Source: an uncultured Gammaproteobacteria bacterium (GTDB taxonomy: Bacteria; Pseudomonadota; Gammaproteobacteria; UBA6002). From it: a stretch of 64,000 bases of DNA. The DNA lies in NCBI GenBank assembly GCA_963705725.1, contig CAVPKM010000013.1, positions 25,862 to 89,861 of the forward strand, written 5' to 3'. The stretch's first letter is position 1, and each line of letters starts with the position of its first letter. Below, piece by piece: positions 49,001 through 49,444 of the stretch. Made by a program: the position numbers and the translations under genes. The notes beneath the pieces were generated by a model. It did no database searches, was not told the origin of the DNA, and saw only the letters and a program-made list of their open reading frames with translations.

Positions 49001-49117
49001 TGCGTGAATTCCTTGATGATCGTGAAGATTATTTGCTTGGTATTGCTGCGTTAGAAAAAAAAGAAGGCACTATTAGCCTCAAAGAATTGAAGAAAGATCT
49101 TGGCGTGGAAGATTGAA
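49001..49117 (+). CDS. truncated RelB/StbD-type antitoxin (38 aa, C-terminal toxin-binding part only)
   Basis: [38 protein letters not shown] resembles the C-terminal half of StbD/RelB antitoxins. A stop codon lies immediately upstream in frame, so no DNA-binding N-domain is encoded. Overlaps the toxin start. Confidence 0.45.
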
Positions 49118-49444
49118 TTTAGAAAATCTGCGGCAAAAGAACTCATGAAGCTCGATAAGCAAACCCAGAAACGCATTATTTCTTTTCTTGAGGAAAAGCT
49201 AGAAGGTGCTATTAATCCAGGGATGGAAGGGAAAGCATTGAAAGGGAACGGAACAGAATTATGGCGTTATCGTGTTGGTGATTATCGATTGATATGCCAG
49301 ATTAACGATATGATAGTAACCGTATTAGTCGTTAGTATTGGGCATCGTAAAGAAATTTATCATCGTCTGAATAACCAATCTAAATCCTTGGCTATCACTA
49401 GACGAGCTACTCGAAGAATTTATAAAAAAAATGAACGAGCCTAG
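49100..49444 (+). CDS. relE: RelE/ParE (StbE) family type II toxin
   Basis: …[24 protein letters not shown]…[43 protein letters not shown] matches the RelE/StbE consensus. Confidence 0.75.

Follow-up and report, generated by a model that had tools for sequence, protein, structure and literature searches.

The relBE-like gene pair in the 64,000-nucleotide stretch of DNA analyzed here (the window, to which all positions refer) is most likely a recently truncated, essentially silent and decaying toxin-antitoxin (TA) module of plasmid type. It belongs, in degenerate form, to an abundant relBE family, and nothing about it lies outside known biology. Of the features that define a RelBE module, the locus retains the toxin and the gene order and lacks two others, namely the ribbon-helix-helix (RHH) domain of the antitoxin and the autoregulatory operator. 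A reading made earlier from the letters of the DNA (the sequence-only reading) had offered a decaying module as one of its alternatives, and this part of it fits the evidence, with promoter, operator and RHH domain lost and broken genes in the surroundings.

The two reading frames, and a stop codon in frame upstream of the first, were found as that reading had described them (Table 1). The antitoxin gene precedes the toxin gene, with an overlap of 17 nt (49100-49116), and both this overlap and the TTG start of the toxin are arranged as in relatives. The pair sits in an IS-rich island of ~11.5 kb between rnpB (40239-40578) and mraZ/rsmH (from 52118) that contains an IS66-family transposase gene, an IS256/Mutator-family transposase gene, an IS3 orfA fragment, several orphan ORFs and a broken ATPase-like gene. 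The rnpB-mraZ interval is a mobile-element hotspot, marked by the IS256/Mutator transposase gene and the IS3-type fragment. None of the pieces of the ATPase-like gene gave a significant Pfam match, and one of the breaks between them falls at an A7 run (50592-50598). The uninterrupted poly-A run of 108 nt in the IS66-family transposase ORF reads as about 36 Phe residues; it could have arisen in assembly or be a true insertion. Elsewhere, a 364-residue ORF on the plus strand (41937-43031) resembles VRP3, the Salmonella SpvC-type virulence protein family, weakly and below the threshold (E 4e-4; 20.3 bits, cut-off 25). This ORF possibly encodes a secreted effector, as might be expected in an organism that lives with a host. 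The source of the DNA is a low-GC gammaproteobacterium without a close relative in the genome collection searched: the best matches to its MurE were 54% identical (Gammaproteobacteria bacterium RBG_16_37_9) and 50% identical (an uncultured Coxiellaceae MAG).

Table 1. Positions of the relBE remnant and of neighboring features in the window
Feature	Position	Strand	Remarks
IS66-family transposase ORF	43267-44340	-	interrupted by a 108-nt poly-A run, 43758-43865
IS256/Mutator-family transposase gene	44897-46129	-	intact, 410 aa, E 3e-120
IS3-type orfA fragment	47489-47584	-	31-aa ORF, judged by eye
Gly-rich orphan ORF, copy A	48561-48899	+	112 aa; its 3' end and hairpin border on the antitoxin remnant
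Palindrome	48944-48976		arms 48944-48959 and 48961-48976 with a 1-nt center; 16 + 16 nt, 100% complementary
Junction	48977-48999	+	T-rich spacer, still resembling the copy B flank (TTTTGAC); holds the in-frame TGA
In-frame TGA	48988-48990	+	three codons 5' of the antitoxin-remnant ATG
Antitoxin remnant ORF	49000-49116	+	ATG start, 38 aa; 5'-truncated relB-like gene
A8 homopolymer	49055-49062	+	within the antitoxin remnant
Toxin ORF	49100-49444	+	TTG start, 114 aa; RelE/StbE family
Gly-41 codon GGG	49220-49222	+	AGG (Arg) in relatives
Toxin tail	49361-49444	+	27 codons of a basic tail after the conserved Tyr-87, plus the stop codon
Gly-rich orphan ORF, copy B	49803-50153	+	116 aa; palindrome copy follows; no TA genes after
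Second palindrome copy	about 50200-50234		identical; no TA genes alongside
Fragmented ATPase-like gene (50305-51401)	50305-50601, 50622-50765, 50869-51183, 51162-51401	+	at least 4 consecutive ORFs
HTH_3/XRE-type ORF	~51719-51913	-	borderline; scores 23.0 bits, exactly at the Pfam threshold

Profile scores, matches to solved structures and the topology of an AlphaFold2 model all place the toxin in the RelE/StbE branch of the RelE/ParE superfamily. It scored 55.8 bits against Pfam ParE_toxin (PF05016; cut-off 23, E 7e-15, residues 5-87) and 39.6 bits against NCBIfam TIGR02385 RelE_StbE (cut-off 27.9). Its best match among solved structures was PDB 2KHE (E 3.8e-20, residues 1-87), E. coli RelE was matched over the full length at E 5e-5, and the AlphaFold model, based on 39 sequences, has a RelE-like beta-alpha-alpha-beta3 core over residues 1-88 with a pLDDT of ~80. 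A database search yielded 715 toxin homologs, nearly all of 86-94 residues; the closest independent one, P0002 of locus L001, is 87% identical. Residues Arg-63, Arg-83 and Tyr-87 align to Arg-61, Arg-81 and Tyr-87 of E. coli RelE, which are critical for cleavage in that protein (Neubauer et al., PMC2807027). The three positions are invariant or near-invariant in 119 homologs, and the alignment indicates that the catalytic residues are conserved in the window toxin. We also considered a ParE-type gyrase poison, since the Pfam family bears the name ParE_toxin. Such poisons lack the RelE catalytic Arg/Tyr set, and the assignment was rejected because the NCBIfam match is to RelE_StbE, the Arg/Arg/Tyr set is present, and the solved-structure matches are RelE proteins. 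The only non-RelE structures matched were designed 'Cake' repeat proteins, over a short stretch.

The description of this toxin as intact, which the sequence-only reading had given, holds for the family profiles and for the catalytic Arg/Arg/Tyr residues, none of which carries an inactivating substitution, but not for two other features, a glycine at position 41 and a C-terminal tail of 27 residues. The position of Gly-41 is occupied by Arg (101), Lys (17) or Ser (1) in the 119 database homologs and by Arg (72), Lys (2), Ala (1) or Thr (1) in 76 metagenomic homologs, so that Arg or Lys is present in 192 of 195 sequences (118/119 and 74/76). Parsimony with two outgroups assigned the AGG-to-GGG change (R41G) to the window lineage. 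Gly-41 aligns to Arg-38 of E. coli RelE, where the alpha2-beta2 loop begins, and not to Arg-45, Arg-61 or Arg-81; R41G was therefore rejected as a catalytic-residue change. We found no literature on Arg-38 of E. coli RelE; the alpha2-beta2 loop of that protein contacts the decoding center (PMC2807027). At the other end of the gene the family stop codon has been lost, and the ORF extends 27 residues beyond the conserved Tyr-87, whereas 118 of 119 and 69 of 70 homologs have at most 5 residues after it. In the AlphaFold model the tail forms a helix of low confidence (pLDDT ~50). Both R41G and the tail are near-unique among the homologs, and they may already weaken the toxin.

The 38-residue ORF upstream corresponds to residues 33-70 of a 70-residue, RHH-containing RelB-like antitoxin, with 92% identity to the antitoxin of L001 over these residues. 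A tblastn comparison with the full-length L001 antitoxin matched residues 31-70 (87.5%, E 7e-19), and the ORF itself matched positions 30-70 of the 70 in NCBIfam NF048017 'RelB family antitoxin' (E 7.7e-5) with 22.8 bits, which is below the whole-protein cut-off of 50 bits; there was no Pfam match to the ORF. Because the NF048017, tblastn and L001 alignments cover the C-terminal part alone, we conclude that the C-terminal half of the antitoxin is present and its N-terminal RHH half absent, in agreement with the sequence-only reading. The RHH domain comprises residues 2-42 of the full-length antitoxin and aligns weakly to solved RHH domains (CopG-family CopA, PutA and DinJ), and several antitoxin homologs have precomputed RHH_1, TraY or DUF6290 matches. 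With residues 33-70 alone encoded, the DNA-binding domain is missing, and the identity to L001 indicates that the C-terminal toxin-binding segment is still there. The residues conserved in the family are kept in the remnant except for L36V in the LGL motif. Its ATG stands where relatives have an internal Leu/Ile-33 codon, and no Shine-Dalgarno sequence was found before it in the junction.

How exceptional this form is can be seen from the intact relatives. On L001, a 5.4-kb plasmid-like contig with a RepA_C replication gene, a 70-residue antitoxin precedes the toxin, and in L004, a Rickettsiella sp. MAG, the antitoxin is annotated 'ribbon-helix-helix protein, CopG family'. The homolog search used a full-length relative as the query, 38 residues being too short, and returned 89 antitoxin homologs, 53 of them exactly 70 residues long; the sole 38-residue entry is P0205 of this same genome. 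Looking up the 38-residue protein by its exact sequence returned no contig record, and its cluster carries no names. We also examined 83 loci, 80 of them metagenomic (L085-L164) and three reference (L001, L003 and L004). The tblastn match begins at antitoxin residue 1 in all 83, and the antitoxin ORF is exactly 70 residues long in 78 of 82. On these comparisons, the 38-residue form is evidently a one-off and not a conserved architecture.

The intact modules also show what should precede the antitoxin gene. A Shine-Dalgarno-like motif (GGAGG, GGGA or AGG) lies upstream of the antitoxin start, and L001, L003 and L004 share a perfect inverted repeat, TGTTTAACATGTTAAACA, upstream of that start (2770-2800 in L001). 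A promoter-like pair, TTGCAA...TACTAT, is shared upstream by L001 and L003. When we counted pairs of GTT[T/A]AAC half-sites separated by at most 6 nt and lying no more than 80 nt upstream of the antitoxin start, 60 of the 79 intact modules had the consensus GTT[T/A]AAC-N2-GTT[T/A]AAC (e.g. GTTTAAC-N2-GTTAAAC), and a version with one mismatch precedes most of the remaining modules shown. The pattern of conservation makes this repeat the likely native operator of the 70-residue RHH antitoxin family, for which a well-supported candidate operator consensus is thus gained.

DNA similarity of the window to L001, L003 and L004 runs from ~49001 to ~49366, and at its left edge CCC-ATG-CGT-GAA of the window is aligned with GCT-TTG/ATA-CGT-GAA of the relatives. 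Antitoxin residues 1-30 gave no significant tblastn match in the 64-kb window (best E 1.5), and no operator-like site with up to 3 mismatches was found in it either; translocation of the missing N terminus or operator to another place in the window was rejected because neither was found. A crude scan of the plus strand from 48400 to 49288 turned up no promoter-like site, nor did it give one for the clearly gene-like Gly-rich ORF. The antitoxin remnant is thus preceded by neither the family operator nor a promoter-like site, the elements of an autoregulated promoter. Because 96 nt of coding DNA are missing and the operator is absent as well, the loss of the 5' part of the antitoxin gene is a deletion or rearrangement and not a frameshift. 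An exact search of JGI metagenomes with a relB segment gave no match and thus no pre-truncation allele of the locus, and a search of plasmids at the DNA level returned short matches alone, with 74% identity.

That the truncation is an assembly or sequencing artefact, a mis-join at a repeat in a genome whose antitoxin is full length, is extremely unlikely. The junction does adjoin a repeated element, and there are probable homopolymer-length problems in the window (the split at an A8 run in mraY and the 108-nt poly-A). However, an independent Logan assembly (L002, from run ERR10755948, 1132 nt) matches window positions 48945-50075 across the junction and is identical to them except for a single homopolymer base. 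Since the junction is reproduced in L002, it is not an assembly artefact, and a frameshift cannot account for the coding DNA and operator that are absent. The single difference is an A9 run in L002 in place of the A8 run in the remnant; the intact L001 has A8. Translation of the A9 version shortens the peptide ORF to 25 residues, with loss of the C-terminal end.

A9 may be the true state in the antitoxin remnant. A comparable situation was seen in the essential gene mraY, which is split into two ORFs (58427-58744 and 58729-59592) with the break at an A8 run (58709-58716), where one extra A (A9) would restore a conserved motif. A homopolymer sequencing error, a real frameshift and a slippage-rescued site are each possible for mraY. 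Transcriptional slippage at poly(A) tracts has been described in AT-rich endosymbionts. The mraY split and the A9 of L002 together make homopolymer lengths in this assembly uncertain. There are other runs of this kind in the window: at 19478-19484 a length change of 1-2 nt would fuse frames and extend them from 797 to 1110 codons, and around 25606-25908 such a change would extend them from 104-120 to 183-196 codons. These are possible additional frameshifts or errors.

A four-taxon parsimony count gave 7 synonymous and 4 nonsynonymous changes in the toxin and 2 and 1 in the antitoxin remnant on the window lineage, and 5 and 4 in the toxin and 3 and 1 in the antitoxin on the L001 lineage. This count gave no signal of relaxed selection on the window lineage. 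With no sign that constraint has been relaxed, most of the divergence predates the truncation, and the truncation is recent. A long-dead pseudogene was rejected in favor of this recent truncation, given that the substitutions still resemble purifying selection.

We examined the palindrome that lies between the Gly-rich ORF copy A and the remnant. It is real, with fully complementary arms, and the number of such matches expected by chance is 0; its distance to the remnant ATG is 23 nt and not 28 nt, as had been stated at first. An identical copy follows the second Gly-rich gene, and both copies lie about 45 nt past the stop codon of a Gly-rich ORF. Folded as RNA, the palindrome forms a 15-bp hairpin (-23.7 kcal/mol, z -6.5) with an AT-rich stem (4 GC pairs) and an interrupted T-run (AGATGTTATTTT), and a simple terminator scan listed the first palindrome on the plus strand and the second copy on the minus strand. 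From its position and fold, we regard the palindrome as a terminator-like hairpin of the upstream Gly-rich gene, outside the TA module. An integron attC site and a REP element were both rejected on inspection of the sequence, as there is no GTTRRRY core and there are just two copies, both after paralogous genes. A search of GTDB-representative genomes gave no match to the palindrome and so no sign of a genome-wide repeat.

The two Gly-rich genes are 93-100% identical over their last ~190 nt and the palindrome but divergent in their 5' parts, a pattern suggestive of a recent gene conversion or of duplication of part of the unit. Their products are probably membrane-associated and have no homologs save each other among 5.8 billion proteins. 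The similarity between copies A and B extends a few bases beyond the hairpin (TTTTGAC); the breakpoint with the relB remnant therefore lies within ~10 nt of the ATG.

These data make it very unlikely that the palindrome is an operator whose control was taken over by a nearby XRE-family repressor, as the sequence-only reading had proposed. The palindrome is perfect and near the ORF, and a small HTH_3-like ORF is indeed encoded on the minus strand. However, the second copy of the palindrome has no TA genes beside it, the first resembles a terminator, and neither has meaningful similarity to the family operator, which is a different conserved repeat and is absent here. The remnant, moreover, has no DNA-binding domain with which to use the palindrome. 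The HTH_3-like ORF, the only XRE-like one and probably the regulator that the sequence-only reading had in mind, has a score that just equals the cut-off. It is encoded ~2.3 kb from the relBE remnant on the other DNA strand, with one further gene and the fragmented ATPase gene in between, and no link between the two was found.

For the origin of the locus, we propose that a rearrangement cut a relBE module, made up of an RHH RelB-like antitoxin and a RelE/StbE mRNA-interferase toxin, at both edges within the IS-rich island between rnpB and mraZ. The left breakpoint, a few bases from 49000, cost the module its promoter, its GTTTAAC-type operator, its ribosome-binding site and the first 32 codons, which encode the strand, helix 1 and the beginning of helix 2 of the RHH fold, and what remained was fused directly to the terminator hairpin of the duplicated orphan gene. 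At the right edge the stop codon of the toxin was lost, which gave rise to the 27-residue tail. The remnant would then be transcribed through read-through alone, if at all. As the 38-residue ORF lacks both its own promoter and a Shine-Dalgarno sequence and is closely preceded by a strong hairpin, it is expected to be weakly expressed at best, with the proviso that the promoter and terminator scans were crude. The TTG start of the toxin falls within the last codons of the antitoxin ORF; its translation is therefore probably coupled to that ORF and would be equally weak. This silence would make a near-intact toxin tolerable without a proper antitoxin.

Any read-through would yield the 38-residue peptide together with the toxin. 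A C-terminal peptide of RelB alone binds RelE (PDB 2KC8). The C-terminal region of E. coli RelB wraps around RelE and is required for suppression (PMC12301738), and by analogy the 38-residue peptide, if expressed, may have kept the ability to bind the toxin and dampen its action. Dimerization by way of an RHH fold, DNA binding and autoregulation are impossible for it.

Some of the observations count against decay. Both frames of the remnant are open and show no relaxation of selection, a pattern that would be expected of a functional pair as well, the point of truncation coincides with an ATG, and with the 17-nt overlap retained, translation in the order antitoxin, then toxin, is still plausible. 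We therefore weighed whether the locus is a functional minimal TA pair, in which the 38-residue peptide would be an antitoxin without DNA binding, co-translated with an active toxin, the pair would be transcribed by read-through from the Gly-rich gene, and regulation would come from the promoter and terminator of that host gene and not from autorepression. The open frames, the ATG at the junction and the retained overlap suit such a pair, as do the close identity of the C-terminal half to an intact relative, with a single nonsynonymous change on the window lineage, the toxin catalytic residues, which appear intact, and the fact that the C terminus of E. coli RelB is the toxin-suppressing part (PMC12301738). 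Against it stand an architecture found in this genome only among 89 + 83 relatives, the lack of a Shine-Dalgarno sequence with the stable hairpin only 23 nt upstream, the frameshifting A9 within the peptide ORF of L002, the two near-unique changes in the toxin, and surroundings of IS elements and broken genes. We consider a functional pair unlikely. A 'headless' antitoxin, in which the RelB-like C terminus alone would restrain an active RelE without DNA binding or autoregulation, with expression by terminator read-through from the unrelated upstream gene and with the tail and R41G tuning activity, is likewise unlikely. A minimal pair, if true, would be natural proof that the C-terminal peptide of RelB alone can act as an antitoxin.

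Taken together, the observations favor a silenced fragment in decay, and the correct label for the locus is a truncated, probably non-functional relBE remnant rather than a new TA architecture, with a palindrome that is not an operator. Read in this way, it offers a small snapshot of chromosomal TA decay, in which the regulatory half of the antitoxin and the promoter are lost first, the operon is silenced, and the toxin ORF lingers.

Comparison with known systems places the remnant within the type II TA modules. Against E. coli RelB-RelE (PDB 4FXE and 2KC8; ribosome-bound RelE in 4V7J/4V7K), the toxin aligns over its full length and shares the equivalents of Arg-61, Arg-81 and Tyr-87 and the Leu of the decoding-center 'KL' motif. 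The antitoxin family has the same arrangement of an N-terminal RHH and a C-terminal toxin-binding region, and the antitoxin gene comes first and overlaps. However, sequence similarity is only ~25-30%, the family antitoxin has 70 residues in contrast to the 79 of RelB, and the window locus has no RHH, promoter or operator, a Gly at the equivalent of Arg-38, and the 27-residue tail. The RelE-like toxin of Thermus thermophilus (PDB 2KHE) stops right after the conserved Tyr, and its residue at the NPR/DPR position is Arg instead of the Gly of the window toxin.

Plasmid-borne pairs of a RelE/ParE toxin with a DUF6290/TraY-type RHH protein, such as those of Zymomonas mobilis plasmids, show 53-54% toxin identity. 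A toxin homolog is present in 1007 plasmid records, with partners annotated as DUF6290 or TraY RHH proteins; these pairs are complete two-gene modules, whereas the window holds a chromosomal fragment. The nearest counterparts are the intact modules of Legionellales/Coxiellales-type bacteria and plasmids (a 70-residue RHH antitoxin and a RelE of ~88-90 residues, as in L001 and L004), which have the same TTG start and 17-nt overlap and of which L001 is 87% identical in the toxin and 92% in antitoxin residues 33-70. Unlike the window, these relatives retain codons 1-32, a Shine-Dalgarno sequence and the TGTTTAACATGTTAAACA operator, together with TTGCAA...TACTAT in L001 and L003, and their toxins stop 1-5 residues after Tyr-87, whereas the window toxin stops 27 residues after it.
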